Virus record (IMG/VR): IMGVR_UViG_3300031813_000041
DNA: 47,457 bases
Strand: one strand, 5' to 3'
Source: a virus
Shown here: positions 1-47,457 of the stretch, piece after piece
Numbering within the stretch: the stretch's first letter is position 1
Layout: each line of letters starts with the position of its first letter
Made by a program: the position numbers and the translations under genes
Notes under the pieces: generated by a model
The model's database searches: none
Seen by the model: the letters and a program-made list of their open reading frames with translations, nothing else
Told to the model about the DNA's origin: nothing

Positions 1-127
1 GGATCATGATTGCAGACTCCAGGTATGCGAATTTTACAATCCTCCCCCCTTGCGAGAGAAAGATACTTCTTGGATCTAAATGTCATGCTCTGCCTTAAAT
101 GCCTCTACATACTCTATCAAAGAAGAT
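1..127. repeat. 127-bp terminal direct repeat (copy 1), identical to 47331..47457; circular closure / assembly overlap
   Basis: Read directly: ggatcatgattgcagactcc...ctatcaaagaagat is present at both ends of the window. Confidence 0.95.
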
Positions 128-587: not shown

Positions 588-975
588 TCATTTTGTCCAG
601 ATTGTTTTTCAATATGCTACCCGCAGATATGGGATCTATACCGCCCGCCATTGCGTGTTGCGCGGCAACGATCTCATCATAGACTCTGGTTCTGAGTTCA
701 GCGTATCCACGGAGCTTGATAACGCAATCTTGGAACGTATTCTTATCTACAAAGTTGGTAGCCAGTTCTGTAGCCAACTCAAAGTTGATGTCCAAGTCCA
801 AGCACATATCGTACAAATTGTAGACCTTATGCTCACTCACATAGTTGATGATGGCTCTACAGGAGTTATCAAAAAAGTATTCTGGAAGAACGGCTATTTC
901 TGACAAGTGCTTTCTGTCGTTTAGGATGTTCCCGATTACGAGAACTTCCAGTTCGTACATATCTTGAATGTTCAT
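580..975 (-). CDS. DnaB N-terminal-domain-like protein (possible helicase-associated or loader factor)
   Basis: 131 aa. ELEVLVIGNILNDRKHLSEIAVLPEYFFDNSCRAIINYV fits the remembered DnaB N-terminal domain pattern (E..vLg.ll.....l..l.pe.F....r.if..i). Start overlaps the helicase stop. Confidence 0.5.
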   Translation of the reverse strand: MNIQDMYELEVLVIGNILNDRKHLSEIAVLPEYFFDNSCRAIINYVSEHKVYNLYDMCLDLDINFELATELATNFVDKNTFQDCVIKLRGYAELRTRVYDEIVAAQHAMAGGIDPISAGSILKNNLDKMID

Positions 976-3371
976 GCTCTCCTCTTTGAGTATTTTATTT
1001 GTTCTGAAACAATAATCTTTTGCACAAAGTCAGGAATTGGCCCTGCAACATAATCTAATCCTTTAGGCCACACTCCGGTTATCCTGCGATATTTATGGCT
1101 TACCCACCCTGACTGATAACCTTTCTTGATCGCATACGCCACCAGGCCGGAATAAATCTTCTGTTTCGCCTCTTGAGGCATCTTGACGATCTTCTGTAGG
1201 CTTCCTTCCTGATGTTGGATTCCTTCCGGTTTCGGTGTTTGGAACGCAAATTCGTAGCCGCATTTCTTGCAGACCTTTGGCCTTGATCGAGTAACGTGCT
1301 TGCACTTAGGACAAACCTTGGTAGTCGGCTCTGTCTTAACGGTGTTCTTAGATTCCGCAGCTTTTCCGTCATCTAGTTCTAAAGGAAGTGGGTCAGTAGG
1401 AAATCCTAGTCTAGCGACTGAACCAGAGTGGTCAAGTACCAAAGCGCAATTGTGTACTAGCCTTCCATTGGCTGTGAATCTTTGCAACGGACCTGCATCG
1501 AGAATGTCCCATACTTCCCCTTCGGTTTGAAGGATTTCGCATTCCATTTCTCCACAATCTGATCGAATGAAAGTCCTGTTGATATCAACCGATATAGTGT
1601 GCTGTCGGCGTATCTCACTTCCTTGTGTTCCTGTCGGAATTTCTCGAATCGCAGTGTATGACCTTTGAATTTCCGCGAATTTTGACGATTTAGCGATCCC
1701 GTAGCCCAGCGCAGATTCCCAGGCTCGTAATGTCCATTGTTGTCTATTCTGTCTAACTGAAAGTCCTCTGGATCTTTTGGTATTCCTAGATTTTCCATAA
1801 TCCAAGTTGCCGCTTCGTTTACTCCATTGAATTTGAATTGGATTCCACGAGCTCCATAGTTTTTGTAATTTCTGTTTGATGGATTTTCGCAGCGTTCTTT
1901 TTGACTTTGAGTTCTTACATAAAGCCATTCTGGAGCAGTTATCGGCTTCCTCGGATTGCAATGTTGACAGGCTTTTGTGTTCGGTCTTTTTACCATATTG
2001 TGAAAACGGCTCATTGACTCTTTTCCGCAATCCCCGCATCTCACATGAACCAATAGATTGAACGTCTTCCCTGTGGTATTTGTAGAGATGATCGTCAGAG
2101 AGCCGTATTGGTTTCCCACTAATTCCGGTGACAACGATCCGTCTGCCAGTACCCTTCGCTTCCTCAAGCCTCTTCCAACCGTCATAAGTCATAACCTCGT
2201 GATCTGGTGTAGCAACAATTCCATCATAAGAGATAACCTTTTTTATCCCCATGCAAACAGCACCTTTATGCTCAACGAAATTGCACCCATCCCAGACTTT
2301 ATGGTCAAGTGTGATTTGCTCTATACTTACTTCCCCTTTATCTGTAAGTATCTTAGTGCCTCTAGATAGGCAAGTCTTCCCCTTTGCTGGTCTTAAAACT
2401 CTCCCAACCATCTGAATGTATCGAATCAGTGATCTGGTAGGTCTTGCTAGAATCATGCAAGCTGTCTCAGGTGCATCAAATCCTTCTGCAAAAAGAGATA
2501 CGTTTGAAAGAACCTGTATTTTTCCAGCCCTGAATCGGTCAATGACTTCGTTTCTCTGGTCTTCCTTACAATAACAATCCAGATGCTCTGCTGACACGCC
2601 CTTTCTCTGAAATTGCTCAACAATATGTCTTGAGTGGTCAATGTTTGTAGCAAAGCAGATGGTTTGCAATCCATTTGCTAACTTGAACCAATGCTCAACG
2701 ATATCGCCAATCAGTTCTTGTTTGTCTACCGCAGCACCCAATTGCTTTTGATGATAGTCTCCAGCCACAATCTTCACGCCTTTGAGATCTGGCTCAGACG
2801 GAGCATACATTTCACAGTCAACCAGAAACCCACGATCTATGAGATCCTGAATCGTTGATACAACCACCATATCCTCAAATACTTTCCCCCAAGGATACTC
2901 ACGCCCTAGCCCTTTAGAGAAAGGTGTTGCGGTCAAGCCAAGCACAGTCATGTTGTTATGAGTCCTCATGAACTCATGATACTGAGCAGAGCCTCCGCAG
3001 AGATGCGCTTCATCAATGATGACCAGATCAAAATCAAACACCCATCCAAATTTCTTTCTAGATGAGAAGGTCTGGATAGACGCTACAGTTATTTCTGAAT
3101 GTGGTCTGTGAGTGTTCTGACCTTGGAGGATGCCTGGATAAATCTTGTACTTGGCGAATCTTTCCCATTGCTGCCTAACAAGATCCTTTCTATGGACAAG
3201 GAACAGGACTTTCTTTCCTTTCTCTGCTGCCATCTGCGCTAATGCAACGGCTAATTCTCCCTTTCCCGAGCCAGTTGGCGAATAGATCAGAACCCTTTTC
3301 TTTCCTAATCGTAGAATCTTCTTTGCTTCCAGTATGGTCTGATCTTGGTAGTCTCTTAGTTGGACTTTCAT
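972..3371 (-). CDS. SF2 (DEAD/DEAH-type) DNA helicase precursor containing an intein; C-terminal zinc ribbon
   Basis: 799-aa ORF with Walker A SPTGSGKGE, DEAH box IIDEAH, TAT motif LTATP and motif VI QMVGRVLR. CPKCK...CKKCG ribbon in the C-extein. Intein inserted after GKT. Confidence 0.9.
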   Translation of the reverse strand: MKVQLRDYQDQTILEAKKILRLGKKRVLIYSPTGSGKGELAVALAQMAAEKGKKVLFLVHRKDLVRQQWERFAKYKIYPGILQGQNTHRPHSEITVASIQTFSSRKKFGWVFDFDLVIIDEAHLCGGSAQYHEFMRTHNNMTVLGLTATPFSKGLGREYPWGKVFEDMVVVSTIQDLIDRGFLVDCEMYAPSEPDLKGVKIVAGDYHQKQLGAAVDKQELIGDIVEHWFKLANGLQTICFATNIDHSRHIVEQFQRKGVSAEHLDCYCKEDQRNEVIDRFRAGKIQVLSNVSLFAEGFDAPETACMILARPTRSLIRYIQMVGRVLRPAKGKTCLSRGTKILTDKGEVSIEQITLDHKVWDGCNFVEHKGAVCMGIKKVISYDGIVATPDHEVMTYDGWKRLEEAKGTGRRIVVTGISGKPIRLSDDHLYKYHREDVQSIGSCEMRGLRKRVNEPFSQYGKKTEHKSLSTLQSEEADNCSRMALCKNSKSKRTLRKSIKQKLQKLWSSWNPIQIQWSKRSGNLDYGKSRNTKRSRGLSVRQNRQQWTLRAWESALGYGIAKSSKFAEIQRSYTAIREIPTGTQGSEIRRQHTISVDINRTFIRSDCGEMECEILQTEGEVWDILDAGPLQRFTANGRLVHNCALVLDHSGSVARLGFPTDPLPLELDDGKAAESKNTVKTEPTTKVCPKCKHVTRSRPKVCKKCGYEFAFQTPKPEGIQHQEGSLQKIVKMPQEAKQKIYSGLVAYAIKKGYQSGWVSHKYRRITGVWPKGLDYVAGPIPDFVQKIIVSEQIKYSKRRA
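1449..2372 (-). mobile_element. Intein (308 codons) inserted just after helicase motif VI
   Basis: Begins CLSRGTKILT (block A), has TPDH (block B), ends VWDILDAGPLQRFTANGRLVHN followed by Cys (blocks F/G). Boundary codons checked on the nucleotide sequence (TGC at 2372..2370, AAT at 1451..1449, TGC at 1448..1446). Confidence 0.8.
1457..2185 (-). CDS. HNH-type homing endonuclease encoded in the +1 frame inside the intein
   Basis: 242-aa ORF with GAGG 9 nt upstream of the ATG. Cys cluster CGDCG...CQHC and LDRIDNNGHYEPGNLRWAT motif. Lies entirely within 1449..2372 but in a different frame from the helicase/intein. Confidence 0.7.
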   Translation of the reverse strand: MTVGRGLRKRRVLADGSLSPELVGNQYGSLTIISTNTTGKTFNLLVHVRCGDCGKESMSRFHNMVKRPNTKACQHCNPRKPITAPEWLYVRTQSQKERCENPSNRNYKNYGARGIQFKFNGVNEAATWIMENLGIPKDPEDFQLDRIDNNGHYEPGNLRWATGSLNRQNSRKFKGHTLRFEKFRQEHKEVRYADSTLYRLISTGLSFDQIVEKWNAKSFKPKGKYGTFSMQVRCKDSQPMEG

Positions 3372-4119: not shown

Positions 4120-4461
4120 ATGAAACCGTTTAACTTAGAAGCAGCACTCAATGGTGCAAAGGTTGTGACCCGTGATGGTCGCGAAGTTAGTCAGCTTGTT
4201 TGGTTTGATTGCGCTAACAAACATTGTTTGCAAGGCGTGATTGGTGATTGGCTATTTTCATGGACTTTCGAGGGCAAGTTCATGGGTGACGAGATAGAAG
4301 ATCATGATAAGGATCTTTTTATGGCAACCACAAAGCATGAGGGTTGGATTAATTTGTATGGCTGCGGAGAAGCTGGGGTGATTTATGACACCTTAGAAGA
4401 GGCTGTGGGTCAGGCCGAAGGTGGTTGTATAGCAACTGTCAGGGTGGAGTGGGAATCATGA
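4120..4461 (+). CDS. Hypothetical protein (paralogous C-terminal motif with 9229..9522)
   Basis: AAGGAG RBS at 4108..4113 makes ATG 4120 the likely start rather than 4042. C-terminus HEGWINLY...YDTLEEA...IATVRVEWE. Confidence 0.7.
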   Translation: MKPFNLEAALNGAKVVTRDGREVSQLVWFDCANKHCLQGVIGDWLFSWTFEGKFMGDEIEDHDKDLFMATTKHEGWINLYGCGEAGVIYDTLEEAVGQAEGGCIATVRVEWES

Positions 4462-4973: not shown

Positions 4974-5191
4974 GAGTCGATCTTTTAAACGGGACCACCG
5001 TTACACTTGAATACAATTTTTCAAAAGGCTATGACGCTACCCTTGAAGATCCAGGTTGTGATGATGAGTTTGAGATTGAGCAAGTTCTCTGGGATAGCGG
5101 AAAAGGTGAGATAGATATCTATCCGATTCTCTCTGATCTTGAGATCGAGAACATTGAAGATCAATTCTGGGCATATGAGGAAGAACCGTGA
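4970..5191 (+). CDS. Hypothetical acidic protein
   Basis: ATGA overlap with the previous stop and a GGGGG RBS; 73 aa, D/E-rich. Confidence 0.55.
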   Translation: MRVDLLNGTTVTLEYNFSKGYDATLEDPGCDDEFEIEQVLWDSGKGEIDIYPILSDLEIENIEDQFWAYEEEP

Positions 5192-5835
5192 GAGTAGATT
5201 TGCTAGACCATTCTGGAAACGACCTGTCTGTTGTGAACTCAGCCAGAGTCAGCTTTGATAAAACCTCTTACTTAGATGATGACGGTAATTTAAGTGAACG
5301 GGATAAATCTTTAATAAGCTATCTTGCTAGGAACAAGCACTGGACTCCGTTCACTCACGCAACCGCCAGCTTTAGAGTCACGATGCCAATATATGTGGCT
5401 AGGCAACTTGCAAAGCATCAGATGGGAGGCTCAGTCAACGAAGTCTCAAGAAGATATGTAGATACGCCCCCTGTGTTTGATATGCCTAAAAAATGGCGTA
5501 AACGCGCAGAGAATGTGAAGCAGGGATCTAGTGATGACTGCATCACCGTAGACACGGCTTTATCAAGTCAGATAGCTGACACAATGGATCGTGTTTATCT
5601 GCTCTATAACGATTTGCTGATGTTAGGCGTATGCCCAGAACAGGCCAGAGCTATCCTGCCGCTCTGTACGGAAACGACATGGATATGGACTGGATCACTC
5701 TATTTCTTCGCCAGAGTGTGCAATCAACGTCTTGACCCTCACGCACAGAGGGAAACGGCTGAAGTTGCCAGAGAGATTGAGAAATATATGTCTGTTCTTT
5801 TTCCTGCAAGCTGGAAGGCGCTCCGTGGACTATAA
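5188..5835 (+). CDS. thyX: FAD-dependent thymidylate synthase ThyX
   Basis: 215 aa. ARQLAKHQMGGSVNEVSRRY matches the ThyX RHRxxSxxxxSxRY-type signature region. GTG start overlaps the upstream TGA. Confidence 0.8.
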   Translation: MRVDLLDHSGNDLSVVNSARVSFDKTSYLDDDGNLSERDKSLISYLARNKHWTPFTHATASFRVTMPIYVARQLAKHQMGGSVNEVSRRYVDTPPVFDMPKKWRKRAENVKQGSSDDCITVDTALSSQIADTMDRVYLLYNDLLMLGVCPEQARAILPLCTETTWIWTGSLYFFARVCNQRLDPHAQRETAEVAREIEKYMSVLFPASWKALRGL

Positions 5836-44075: not shown

Positions 44076-44101
44076 GCCCCGTTAATTCGGGGCTTTTTTT
44101 T
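44076..44101 (+). terminator. Rho-independent terminator
   Basis: GCCCCG ttaatt CGGGGC followed by T8. Confidence 0.8.
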
Positions 44102-44158
44102 GGAGTTGGACACCATAAAAAGATACCCATAAAATACCTATTGTTATCAAATAAGATA

Positions 44159-44168
44159 ATAACGTTAT
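44159..44168. promoter_or_regulatory. Perfect 10-bp palindrome ATAACGTTAT flanked by GTTATCA repeats (operator candidate upstream of the repL-like gene)
   Basis: Read directly. GTTATCA is found at 44143 and 44164. Confidence 0.3.
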
Positions 44169-44251
44169 CAGATATGGTAATTTGAGTCTCGCAAACTCTT
44201 GATTCCAAAGGGGATTTTTGTACCCCTTCATTAACCATATATAGGTATTCT

Positions 44252-44671
44252 ATGGGTAAAAAACTACTGGTAACAGTTGATACCGATACCGGTGAACAAC
44301 TGACAGGAATATTAGCATATTGTCCAAGCAAGAAAATATGACCATTTTCAAAAGGGGGTTTTGTGAATTGCAGTCAACTTGCAAGCAAGCAATTAGCCAA
44401 TAAGCATAACAACTTGGATAGGCTTTCTTTGTTGCTTGTCTTTTATGTGATCGGTAATTCTGATTACAAGGGTAAGGTATACCTTGAACCCAAAAGGCTA
44501 TCTAAGCATTTTGATGTGACGCGCCAACAGATAAGTAGGTCTATTCGTATGCTTTTGGATTTCGGGATTATCATCCCATCTGATAGGCGATTGGAATATG
44601 ACATTAATCCAGAGTATTTCTGGAAAGGTTCGGGAAAATCTCACGCCACGGCTTTGCGATTGGTGCAGTAA
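44252..44671 (+). CDS. RepL-like winged-helix replication initiator reading frame, interrupted by an in-frame TGA at 44339..44341
   Basis: ATG 44252 and GTG 44363 are in the same frame. MGKKLLVTVDTDTGEQL...KKI-TGA-PFSKGGFV...FDVTRQQISRSIRMLLDFGII...YDINPEYFWKGSG follows the remembered RepL family layout across the stop. Confidence 0.45.
44363..44671 (+). CDS. Minimal ORF of the RepL-like wHTH protein (GTG start after the in-frame TGA)
   Basis: 102 aa. AAAGGGGG RBS 5 nt before the GTG. wHTH FDVTRQQISRSIRMLLDFGII. Confidence 0.6.
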   Translation: MNCSQLASKQLANKHNNLDRLSLLLVFYVIGNSDYKGKVYLEPKRLSKHFDVTRQQISRSIRMLLDFGIIIPSDRRLEYDINPEYFWKGSGKSHATALRLVQ

Positions 44672-45039
44672 TGGATACACCAAAGAAAAGGGCATCGTGG
44701 GCAAACTACGATATCCGTAAGAAATTCGGTAGACGCTCAAAAACCAAGACCGCCAAAAGAAAAAGGCGAGAGCAAATCCACTCACGGAAAAAGGCGCTTA
44801 ACGCGGAGCTTGCAGCACTAATCCGCGCCTATAGGCCACCCAAGCAACAAAAAGTGATTCTCAATCTTAGGCTAACCCCTGAAACCATTTCGCTGATAAA
44901 GCCAATCAGGGGGAGGAGCAAATGGATTGAAGCGTTGATCCTTCGGGAAGTGGAGCGGATACACGCTAAACACGGCAAACCCTTGTTTTCACTACCAGAG
45001 ACATGGGATGAGGCGGAAAGGCTACTAGAAAAGCTTTAG
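44671..45039 (+). CDS. Highly basic protein
   Basis: 122 aa. N-terminal K/R-rich tract KKFGRRSKTKTAKRKRREQIHSRKK. TAATG overlap with the repL-like stop. Confidence 0.5.
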   Translation: MDTPKKRASWANYDIRKKFGRRSKTKTAKRKRREQIHSRKKALNAELAALIRAYRPPKQQKVILNLRLTPETISLIKPIRGRSKWIEALILREVERIHAKHGKPLFSLPETWDEAERLLEKL

Positions 45040-45131: not shown

Positions 45132-45150
45132 ACCCCCAAAAATTGGGGGT
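45132..45150 (-). terminator. Hairpin terminator candidate for the leftward mazG operon
   Basis: ACCCCCAA aaa TTGGGGGT. On the minus strand the stem is followed by TTTCC. Confidence 0.45.
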
Positions 45151-45165
45151 ATCCATCAGGTCGGC

Positions 45166-45222
45166 TGATATAGCAAACGCCATTGTTATATAGCATCCGC
45201 TCTTGTTATATAGCAAACCGCC
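45166..45222. repeat. Three iterons with exact 20-bp phasing (core ATATAGCA; two copies share TTGTTATATAGCA)
   Basis: Cores at 45168..45175, 45188..45195 and 45208..45215, read directly. Confidence 0.7.
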
Positions 45223-46067: not shown

Positions 46068-46342
46068 TTGTCTAGTTTCTCGATGTCTTGAATTGTTTCA
46101 ATGACGCAAGCTGCTCCGCGCCAGGAGGAGTGGAAATCGGCTTCATCATCGGTGAGCTTTCGTTTACTGGGGGGCTTAGATCCGTCTTTGATTTCAATGA
46201 GAATCGTATGCCTATACTTGCCAACAACAATGTCAGGAAAACCGCCACCAACATTAGAAGTGATAGCCACAGAATAACCGCATCCACGAAAGTACTTAAC
46301 GATCTCAGTTTGATTTGCATCTACTCTCCCTCTTTGCCTCAT
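46016..46342 (-). CDS. PD-(D/E)XK nuclease (VRR-NUC/resolvase-like)
   Basis: GRVDANQTEIVKYFRGCGYSV...GFPDIVVG...ILIEIKDG fits the D...(D/E)xK core. ATG 46342 abuts the upstream stop. Confidence 0.55.
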   Translation of the reverse strand: MRQRGRVDANQTEIVKYFRGCGYSVAITSNVGGGFPDIVVGKYRHTILIEIKDGSKPPSKRKLTDDEADFHSSWRGAACVIETIQDIEKLDKWLRDTYQNFAHNIDSL

Positions 46343-47108
46343 ACACCACACATTCCTTCACATTCATTGCCAAACATATCTGTCTGGTTCTCAATGATGT
46401 TGAAGTTTACTTGGTCCAATGGCTTACAGGATCTGTGCATGAATTGTTGATCGTTCATCTTGGACGTTCTGTTTCTAATCAATCTGTCAATTTCTATGGT
46501 TTGTTGCCATTCTTCTGGATCTTGATTTTTGATCTCTACCCATTGCTTATCAGAATGAAACGGGCAGCCCAGACAAGATGATTTTGGAGGCTGCGGCGCA
46601 TTGTTTTTACCAAACCATTCCATACAATGACCCCGCGACATTCCTAGTTCAATTAAAGGCCAACGATGCTCAATCCAAGCAACTCTGCTGGGCTTCATCC
46701 TAATGGCCTCATCGGTAGATATTCCGATCCACATCATTACAGATCCGGCAGGTATGCGTTTGTATTTAGCATAGCCAAGCAACTCTCTTACTTTCTTTTG
46801 AACTGGTAGGATTTTGTACTGAGCAGTGCATTGTCTTCGACCCATGCCCCCCCTGATGTAAAGAATGGTACGTAAGCAAACCTACCTGTTCCCTTAATTG
46901 CTTCCAATAAACCATCATCTTTCATCACTCGGTACACAGGAAACGGGAGTTGCTTTTCTAGCCAGTCCAGATAGTCATGTACTTTCTTTGGCTCCCATTT
47001 AGTATCAGCAAATATAGCCGCATCTGGCATAGGGCCAATCTCTCCTCTTGCAGCCATCATTGCCAATGTTGATGACTGTACTCCCGCTCCCAGAGATAAA
47101 ATGTTCAT
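46339..47108 (-). pseudogene. PAPS-reductase-family (adenine nucleotide alpha-hydrolase) gene split by a frameshift at a G7 run
   Basis: N-part 47108..46788 (LSLGAGVQSSTLAMMAA PP-loop-like) and C-part 46845..46339 (RRQCTAQYKILP..., CLGCPF, ECEGMCG) are in frames offset by one. They meet at the C7/G7 run 46847..46853. Confidence 0.65.
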
Positions 47109-47416
47109 TTGTATTCAATGTGTCCGTTGTCAAATGCCCAGTCCAAAGTTCTCTCAAAACCTCTTTGCCAGAACTCATCCATATCAGCAGGTGATAAGTG
47201 GGTGTGAATCCTTCCATCTATTGCATCATGGCAGCTAGAGCAAGCATGAGCAACGTAGTAGTCACGAGCCTTGAAACCCATTCCTTTACCATGACGGACC
47301 TTATTGCTATGAGCGCATATGGTAGTTGCTGGATCATGATTGCAGACTCCAGGTATGCGAATTTTACAATCCTCCCCCCTTGCGAGAGAAAGATACTTCT
47401 TGGATCTAAATGTCAT
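47105..47416 (-). CDS. ybcO: YbcO-like DUF1364 protein (putative nuclease)
   Basis: ARGEDCKIRIPGVCNHDPATTICAH and ACSSCHDAIDGR resemble E. coli YbcO ARGRECQVRIPGVCNGNPETSVLAH and ACSACHDEIDRR (from memory). The 5' end lies in the terminal repeat. Confidence 0.75.
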   Translation of the reverse strand: MTFRSKKYLSLARGEDCKIRIPGVCNHDPATTICAHSNKVRHGKGMGFKARDYYVAHACSSCHDAIDGRIHTHLSPADMDEFWQRGFERTLDWAFDNGHIEYK

Positions 47417-47457
47417 GCTCTGCCTTAAATGCCTCTACATACTCTATCAAAGAAGAT
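47331..47457. repeat. 127-bp terminal direct repeat (copy 2), identical to 1..127
   Basis: Same string as 1..127; the ybcO-like start and the ninB stop lie inside it. Confidence 0.95.

Follow-up and report, generated by a model that had tools for sequence, protein, structure and literature searches.

A RepL-family gene in a phage genome interrupted by a single in-frame TGA, with a probable internal start ahead of its winged helix

Members of the RepL family (Pfam PF05732, "Firmicute plasmid replication protein RepL") share a layout in which D-x-(D/E)-T-G-E is followed by F-x-x-G-(W/F), a winged helix and NP..WKG, and relatives of the protein described below form the main gene, or the sole conserved one, of plasmids of 1.5–2.8 kb. 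Programmed readthrough of a UGA is known from phage Q-beta, where it yields the A1 (readthrough) protein: a conserved, in-frame UGA splits a single frame, and the extension is C-terminal to a protein that is already complete. Classical translational restarts after nonsense mutations were found in laboratory mutants of lacI and T4 rIIB, in which an in-frame GUG or AUG with a Shine-Dalgarno-like sequence, lying no more than a few tens of nucleotides downstream of a premature stop, gives rise to an N-terminally truncated, partly functional protein. A replication gene with two products has been described in pIGRK (a member of the pHW126 plasmid family), where repR encodes the initiator RepR and, from an internal in-frame GTG, the N-terminally shortened, DNA-binding negative regulator RepR′, both of which autorepress (PMC6854812).

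The DNA analysed here (the window, 47,457 nucleotides) represents a complete phage genome, circular and 47,330 bp long, with a terminal overlap of 127 nt and a GC content of 46.5%. On its plus strand, positions 44252–44671 hold, exactly as the original prediction had described them, a 29-codon open reading frame (ORF; MGKKLLVTVDTDTGEQLTGILAYCPSKKI) that begins with the ATG at 44252 and ends with the TGA at 44339–44341, and a 102-aa winged helix-turn-helix (wHTH) ORF in the same frame that begins with the GTG at 44363 and ends with the TAA at 44669–44671. Seven codons separate the stop from the GTG. Codons 1–29 (44252–44338) carry the conserved V-D-x-D-T-G-E ... P-x-K of the RepL family; codon 30 is the TGA, with C as its 3′ neighbour (TGA-C); codons 31–37 (44342–44362; +5.2 bits) encode PFSKGGF and contain the Shine-Dalgarno (SD) sequence AAAGGGGG (44351–44358), at a spacing of four nt from the GTG; and the GTG-initiated ORF (44363–44671) encodes the winged-helix domain and a C-terminal NP..WKGS..H helix. 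Gene callers give the 102-aa ORF as the annotated product of the locus, and PFSKGGF is translated solely when the TGA is read through. Across the 139 codons of the frame the TGA is the only lesion: there is no frameshift and no second stop.

Judged from its sequence, the piece between ATG 44252 and the TGA, together with the ORF from GTG 44363, is one RepL-family gene, and the homology spans the stop. In an exhaustive HMMER protein search, for which the stop of the readthrough product was entered as X, 165 proteins matched at E<=1e-3; of the 150 matches listed, some 130 are proteins of ~135–200 aa that align as a single stretch from query residue ~1–10 to ~135, spanning position 30. The segments were also scored with a family HMM of 78 members, from which both phage sequences had been left out. 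Residues 1–29 alone score 18.1 bits and residues 1–37 score 21.7 bits, whereas among 2,000 shuffles of the N-terminal segment the highest score is 5.2 bits; the 102-aa ORF alone scores 52.4 bits and the full readthrough product 85.1 bits. Against a family HMM built without the window sequence, one domain covers positions 3–140 at 106.7 bits. Thus, the proposal of one RepL-type gene cut by a single in-frame TGA is supported by both the single-stretch alignments and the segment scores, and the 29-codon segment is homologous to the N-termini of initiators.

The motif of the family is (V/I)D-x-(D/E)TGE ... P-x-K-(R/K)-x-[N/S]-(G/P)-F-x-x-G-(W/F)-x-(A)-M-S-Q, then the winged helix, then NP-x-x-x-WKGS. 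The layout given in the original prediction (D-x-D-T-G-E, F-x-x-G-F/W, wHTH, NP..WKG) is the conserved layout of the family retrieved, and given readthrough of the TGA, the conserved residues D10, T13, G14, E15, P25, K27, F32, G36, F37, Q42, P120, W124 and G126 are all present in the window. For annotation, this means that the 29-codon ORF and the 102-aa "hypothetical protein" are parts of a single RepL-family gene.

Assignment to the RepL family rests on the relatives, since by itself the window protein falls short of the Pfam threshold for RepL. PF05732 is matched by 40 of 51 relatives (best E 7e-10), and the family profile retrieves proteins named "replication/maintenance protein RepL" by NCBI at E 1e-36 to 1e-47. 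Thus, the expected match to PF05732 is found by way of the relatives but not in the window protein, for which the readthrough product scores 13.2 bits and the 102-aa ORF 14.3 bits (gathering threshold 20.3 bits), the match being limited to the wHTH (positions 59–128 of 164). A match to DnaD_N is also weak (16–17 bits). Scans of the window protein against Pfam, PHROGs and NCBIfam gave sub-threshold wHTH matches alone, and scans of the 29-aa peptide against the same three collections gave none.

The plasmid collection PLSDB contains 215 plasmids that encode a match to 94–98% of the readthrough product. These are mostly 1.5–2.8 kb in size and come from Escherichia, Klebsiella and Salmonella; one of them, of 1,526 bp, has two genes only, one of which is annotated RepL. 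The structures matched in BFVD belong to phage proteins whose annotations are plasmid replication initiation, replication, or RepL. An AlphaFold model, built with X at the stop position, is confident (pLDDT 90) and has a canonical winged helix followed by a C-terminal helix. Sequence and fold searches of the PDB returned generic winged helices of the MarR, ArsR, CodY and Crp types, with no solved RepL-like structure and nothing resembling the N-terminal segment. A word-indexed protein search with the readthrough product retrieved the 102-aa ORF itself and nothing else, and no close relative was present among GenBank phages (megablast, tblastn) or in IMG/VR. The gene product is thus supported by its homologues as a RepL-family winged-helix replication or maintenance protein, with a putative role as initiator in the phage. 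RepL-like initiators, which are typical of tiny plasmids, therefore also occur in the replication modules of uncultured phages: the window gene lies in a 47-kb phage, beside a clamp-like gene, and unlike the RepL genes of small plasmids its frame carries a TGA at codon 30.

There is one syntenic phage relative, a contig of 4.9 kb from Logan SRR32481683 (L008), in which the gene order is that of the window and the flanking proteins are 60–81% identical to those of the window. Its orthologue of the RepL-like gene is an intact ORF of 140 aa, 41–42% identical to the window protein, with TCC (Ser) at the codon that is TGA in the window. Homologous coding sequence, rather than unrelated sequence, is thus what the relative carries upstream of the internal start. 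Residues 1–37 are 53% identical between the two phages and residues 38–139 are 37% identical; in codons 31–37, six of seven residues are identical and four of five nucleotide differences are synonymous. This level of identity and the synonymous pattern imply that, through most of the period after the window and L008 diverged, the upstream part was coding. Both genes begin with the same ATGGG(T/C)AAA, and the ATG at 44252 is, from this comparison, the ancestral start. With the 78-member HMM the L008 orthologue scores 81.9 bits at full length and its N-terminus 13.8 bits, so that the N-terminal segment of the window (21.7 bits), being more family-like than that of an intact orthologue, has not decayed. 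The comparison of the stop codon between phages rests on this one syntenic relative, which is distant (42% identity). Searches for intermediate phage relatives with the clamp-like gene (against viral and genome contigs, and as a protein against the protein index) and with the alignment of the two phages (against metagenome, viral and genome contigs) gave nothing new; the single extra contig found in searches for relatives stops short of the RepL-like locus.

The stop itself appears to be genuine. That it is no true stop, i.e., that it reflects an assembly or sequencing error, a reassignment of TGA, a suppressor tRNA or a selenocysteine codon, has nothing specific in its favour beyond TGA being the codon of selenocysteine and of reassignment in codes 4 and 25, and we give it hardly any credence. 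The TGA at 44339–44341 is outside any homopolymer and is present in 14 of the 14 contigs examined (seven JGI metagenomes of one series and seven SRA runs, although the SRA runs and the JGI assemblies may derive from the same libraries). Since all 14 contigs share it, it is not the error of one assembly. The contigs include three micro-variant haplotypes, with SNPs at 44915 and 645 and an indel near 37.1 kb. A genetic code in which TGA is sense is ruled out, because 28 of the 72 genes of this genome terminate in TGA, among them those for the helicase and the portal; the TGA stops at 4459 and 5189, which the original prediction had put forward against a global reassignment, are genuine gene ends, and its judgement that reassignment is unlikely is borne out. 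The only tRNA in the genome is Gln(UUG), and a suppressor tRNA with the anticodon UCA is absent. At the locus there is no match to SECIS or to any other RNA family of Rfam, and no significant RNA structure follows the stop (z = -1.1 for the fold of 44320–44420, which is equalled by 23 of 200 shuffles). Trp, Cys and Gly never occur in the family column that aligns to codon 30.

Several candidates for a similar interruption elsewhere were examined and rejected. P0240 (locus L009), considered as a parallel interrupted case, is instead a multiply broken copy. P0243, considered as a short homologue hiding an N-terminal segment upstream, has none there. The Escherichia coli plasmid NZ_CP080079, considered as a second interrupted copy, has an intact long ORF, for which the NCBI pipeline made a conservative start call and annotated the short form.

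The GTG at 44363 had been credited in the original prediction with a ribosome-binding site of its own, and this holds: AAAGGGGG, four nt upstream, pairs with the anti-SD sequence at -11.3 kcal/mol. Pairing this strong is found at only 0.8% of 1,057 internal in-frame ATG or GTG codons, and at 1.3% of the first starts of ORFs, in the same loci. In L008 the internal signal is AAGGAGG-N8-ATG (-12.1 kcal/mol), one codon away from the position of the window's GTG, and in each of 22 family loci an in-frame ATG or GTG stands at alignment position 38–40, with a purine-rich motif upstream. Synonymous recodings of the window average -9.1 kcal/mol at the internal SD; most of its strength thus comes from encoding K-G-G, which weakens the case for a selected internal start, and in the family, too, much of the signal is accounted for by the conserved K/E-G-G/W residues. 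All loci are below the mean of their own recodings, at percentiles of 0.03–0.38, none of which is individually significant (combined p ~0.004, from lineages that are not independent).

The very strong SD of the GTG, and the same signal in L008, indicate that a short, wHTH-only product probably predates the stop. The internal start is therefore probably older than the stop, being present in an intact orthologue, in contrast to the lacI and rIIB mutants, which the locus otherwise resembles in having an in-frame start with an SD soon after a premature stop; a further difference is that the arrangement in the window is fixed in a natural phage population. We infer from these signals that the short product is made and is functional. 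There is also a resemblance to pIGRK repR: in each case the gene encodes a wHTH protein (MarR-like in pIGRK), and the window and L008 likewise have a strong SD and an in-frame start just before the wHTH. RepR of pIGRK belongs to another protein family, is larger (~30 kDa) and has no stop between its two starts, and its two forms have been demonstrated experimentally, whereas those of the window are predicted. With an in-frame SD and a Met or Val codon at position 38–40, RepL-like proteins in general may be made as two isoforms, and the family-wide occurrence of these signals before the winged helix suggests that control of the pIGRK type could be widespread among the initiators of small plasmids. 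This possible internal start is the most interesting lead from the locus, and may matter more than the stop.

The explanation towards which the evidence leans, by a modest degree, is that a lineage-specific, most likely recent, nonsense substitution has been tolerated in a gene that was already making two products. The ancestral gene would have encoded a protein of ~139 aa from ATG 44252, with a weak SD inside a structured leader, and probably also gave an N-terminally truncated, wHTH-only protein from the internal in-frame start with its strong SD. In the family column aligned to the TGA, Asn (66) and Ser (27) predominate, followed by His, Thr and Lys, and codon 30 would ancestrally have been Ser or Asn (most simply TCA), changing to TGA in this phage lineage. 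Ribosomes starting at ATG 44252 would now yield a 29-aa peptide on termination. GTG 44363 would still give the 102-aa wHTH protein, both through ribosomes that initiate directly at AAAGGGGG-N4-GTG and through others that re-initiate 22 nt past the stop. The sole source of full-length protein would be near-cognate decoding of the weak TGA-C, in which Trp is mostly inserted, and the amount would be low and would vary with the host. The nonsense mutation would be buffered by the internal start and perhaps by the leakiness of TGA-C as well. Among the explanations offered in the original prediction, a nonsense mutation fits best, in combination with initiation at the GTG, and the stop is most likely a tolerated substitution of this lineage, with no conserved recoding signal.

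As to the level of readthrough, C at +4 is said to have been reported by Poole, Brown and Tate in 1995 as the weakest stop context in E. coli. Of the stops in E. coli, TGA is the one most prone to error, and reporters with a premature TGA in strain K-12 gave 0.7–6% readthrough with Trp inserted, although the +4 contexts were ranked otherwise in that study, with G weakest and T strongest (PMC11126739). High figures for UGA readthrough come largely from E. coli K-12, which has a weak RF2 allele (PMC5373646) and from which the phage host may differ. We infer that some readthrough of the TGA occurs. Matches to the terminase, all of <46% identity, gave no assignment of the host.

Some observations sit uneasily with a tolerated substitution. 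The N-terminal segment is undecayed, and the ATG and the leader have been kept, which fits a very recent mutation and continued readthrough equally well; and TGA-C is fixed in all contigs, including the three micro-variants, which is how a maintained leaky stop would look as well. If the stop were maintained, TGA-C would be kept by selection, a few percent of the ribosomes from ATG 44252 would make the full-length initiator, and the GTG would give an abundant wHTH-only regulator; we regard this as unlikely. It is favoured by the perfectly intact N-terminal segment and codons 31–37, by the rarity of the TGA-C context at genuine TGA stops in this genome (2 of 28), by the fixation of the stop, by the experimental precedent of two-isoform control of a wHTH Rep protein (PMC6854812), and by the finding that no uninterrupted allele is present in protein collections, including one of 15 billion proteins. 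On this unlikely reading the wHTH-only form would repress or compete, and the stop would set the ratio of initiator to inhibitor of the phage replicon. A maintained stop would be a rare bacterial case of readthrough dosing a replication initiator against its own truncated form.

Conservation gives no support to programmed readthrough, which the original prediction had listed first. The only syntenic relative has TCC (Ser), so that the expected conservation of the TGA in related phages is absent there, and in a six-frame, stop-masked HMM scan of ~25 family loci no stop stood at the codon-30 column. (The full family alignment was too diverse for the retrieval of loci, and a sub-family was used.) The downstream RNA structure is not significant, Trp as the residue expected from readthrough is missing from the column, and the sampled population is nearly clonal, so that fixation of the TGA carries little weight. 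As with Q-beta A1, a single in-frame UGA splits one frame, and a minor, longer product would come from low-level decoding by tRNA-Trp beside a major, shorter one, but the Q-beta stop is conserved and its extension follows a complete protein, whereas the stop of the window is not conserved in the orthologue and lies 29 codons in. Furthermore, unlike in Q-beta, the major product of the window would come from a separate downstream start.

A further way in which both pieces could be of use is as a split protein, in which the 29-aa peptide and the 102-aa wHTH protein associate non-covalently, or as a regulatory upstream ORF that controls initiation at the GTG through termination followed by re-initiation. 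With the stop 22 nt upstream of the SD-GTG, the geometry suits re-initiation; ATG 44252 has been retained; and residues 1–37 of the AlphaFold model are extended, with short beta bridges (pLDDT 75–85), and are not a separate domain. Set against these points, the conserved PFSKGGF of codons 31–37 would be absent from both products, a split arrangement occurs in none of the relatives, and binding in trans by so short a peptide has nothing in its favour; we consider either version very improbable.

Upstream of the gene lies an operon with the clamp-like gene and a small Zn-finger ORF, which ends in an intrinsic terminator on the plus strand (44076–44093; GCCCCG-TTAATT-CGGGGC followed by T8), and L008 has the same hairpin at the equivalent place; the RepL-like gene therefore starts its own transcription unit. 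A sigma-70-like promoter candidate on the plus strand (44107–44135; TGGACA-17 nt-TAAAAT, 10 of 12 matches) is a match to the consensus only, and shuffles gave more promoter-type sites than were observed. On the same strand is a structured leader (44124–44258, or 44100–44258 with the promoter-like site counted in; RNA fold z = -3.9), whose 18-nt inverted repeat (44124–44141 and 44241–44258) covers, with its right arm, the weak SD and ATG 44252. The repeat encloses tandem, operator-like near-palindromes (GTTATCAAATAAGATAAT and GTTATCAGATATGGTAAT, 44143–44181) and a GGGG/CCCC hairpin. The leader of L008 has the same architecture but a different sequence. Downstream, also on the plus strand, a gene for a protein of 122 aa with a basic N-terminus (44671–45039) overlaps the RepL-like gene in TAATG, by which it is translationally coupled to it, and the two genes are kept side by side in L008. 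The 122-aa protein has no match in Pfam or PHROG, and by eye the conserved C-terminal part looks ribbon-helix-helix-like.

That the gene is dead or dying, i.e., that a dispensable RepL-like gene has been inactivated, leaving a 29-aa peptide and a 102-aa ORF without function in the early decay of a pseudogene, seems rather improbable, although a very recent inactivation is conceivable. Clearly decayed copies of the family do exist, since three of the ~25 loci scanned (L009, L024 and L028) have several lesions each; there is a second broken gene in the genome of the window; and the phage carries further genes for replication and recombination (helicase, Erf, exonuclease and the clamp-like gene). 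Unlike the three decayed copies, however, the window has one lesion only, and its N-terminal segment outscores that of the intact orthologue. Moreover, the 102-aa ORF has a very strong SD and start and is coupled to a conserved partner gene, the module is kept in L008, and origin-like repeats adjoin it. A tolerated substitution in a gene with two products is the reading that we prefer here too.

The second interrupted gene is a PAPS-reductase-like ORF, frameshifted at a run of seven G residues, from which it can be seen that lesions do occur in this phage lineage. The operon that faces the RepL-like gene is convergent and encodes MazG, DUF3310, YbcO, NinB and an SNF2 helicase. Between the convergent operons there is a hairpin terminator (45132–45150), and beside it are iteron-like direct repeats (45154–45218), with TATATAGCA units ~20 nt apart, which on their arrangement are a candidate origin or binding region. 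The equivalent region of L008 has two exact 21-mers and seven phased A-tracts.

In every RepL-like gene examined, i.e., those of the syntenic phage relative L008 (Logan SRR32481683), of the family loci L014–L036 and of the E. coli plasmid NZ_CP080079 (L038), alignment position 38–40 holds an ATG or GTG in the reading frame, and in each of them this codon is preceded by a purine-rich motif resembling a Shine-Dalgarno (SD) sequence. In one E. coli plasmid, the short form has been annotated by NCBI despite an intact long ORF. Because the in-frame start and the SD-like motif are shared, and because of this annotation, the comparison hints that RepL-like proteins may generally be made as two isoforms; two such forms have been shown for pIGRK, where RepR and RepR′ are the long and short in-frame products of one gene (PMC6854812). 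In the window, a further start, ATG 44338, shares bases with the TGA that interrupts the RepL-like gene (ATGA). It opens an out-of-frame ORF of 21 codons on the + strand (MTIFKRGFCELQSTCKQAISQ, 44338–44403, ending with TAA 44401–44403), which spans both the SD sequence and GTG 44363, the internal start of the 102-aa ORF. Re-initiation at ATG 44338 would be in competition with GTG 44363.

The leader of the RepL-like gene (44100–44258) contains an 18-nt inverted repeat (44124–44141/44241–44258), giving a long-range helix in which the SD sequence and ATG of the long ORF are occluded (z = −3.9). The leader of L008 (1040–1190) has the same architecture with another sequence, CCCGAUAG/CUAUCGGG. The left arm of the repeat overlaps a −10-like box in the window as well as in L008; therefore, the repeat could alternatively be a pair of DNA operators. 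The stretch from the promoter-like site to the ATG also holds two tandem near-palindromes, GTTATCAAATAAGATAAT and GTTATCAGATATGGTAAT (44143–44181, spacing 21 nt), which look like operators, and at the equivalent position L008 has TGTAAATAATTTACA-type repeats.

The stop codon of the RepL-like gene overlaps (TAATG) a gene for a 122-aa protein (44671–45039, +), for which no match was found in Pfam or PHROG. Its N-terminus is very basic, and its C-terminal part, conserved in L008 (RSKWIE..IL.E..RI..KHGK), looks ribbon-helix-helix-like when judged by eye. The convergent intergenic region 3′ of the operon has origin-like repeats in both phages: in the window, TATATAGCA units spaced by about 20 nt (45154–45218), and in L008 (2092–2220), a 21-mer in two exact copies, TAGCATAGAGCAAATGTTAAA, and after them seven phased A-tracts, GGATAAAAAT, with a period of 10.

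Decayed RepL-like copies are found in L009 (Logan SRR30563903), L024 (Bartonella sp. CM31XJBT) and L028 (Erwinia sp. AnSW2-5), on larger contigs, chromosomal or plasmid. These have multiple lesions (several stops, frameshifts or missing N-termini), whereas the RepL-like gene of the window has a single one.

As the first 127 nt of the window (1–127) recur without change at its end (47331–47457), the contig closes into a circular genome of 47,330 bp. A PAPS-reductase-like gene (phrog_424; 46339–47108, −) is divided between two ORFs, 46788..47108 and 46339..46845; these overlap on the DNA and abut exactly in the phrog_424 profile. The frame shifts at ...TCAGGGGGGGCATGG..., a G7 run near 46838–46846, and the split is therefore due to a frameshift mutation, to a tract prone to slippage, or to programmed frameshifting. 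All contigs covering the site agree in sequence. Finally, phrog_26005 matches a short stretch in both the SNF2/DEAD helicase (972–3371, −) and the ThyX-like thymidylate synthase (5188–5835, +), and helicase residues 352–401 also match an endonuclease family; this may be an inserted HNH-like module.
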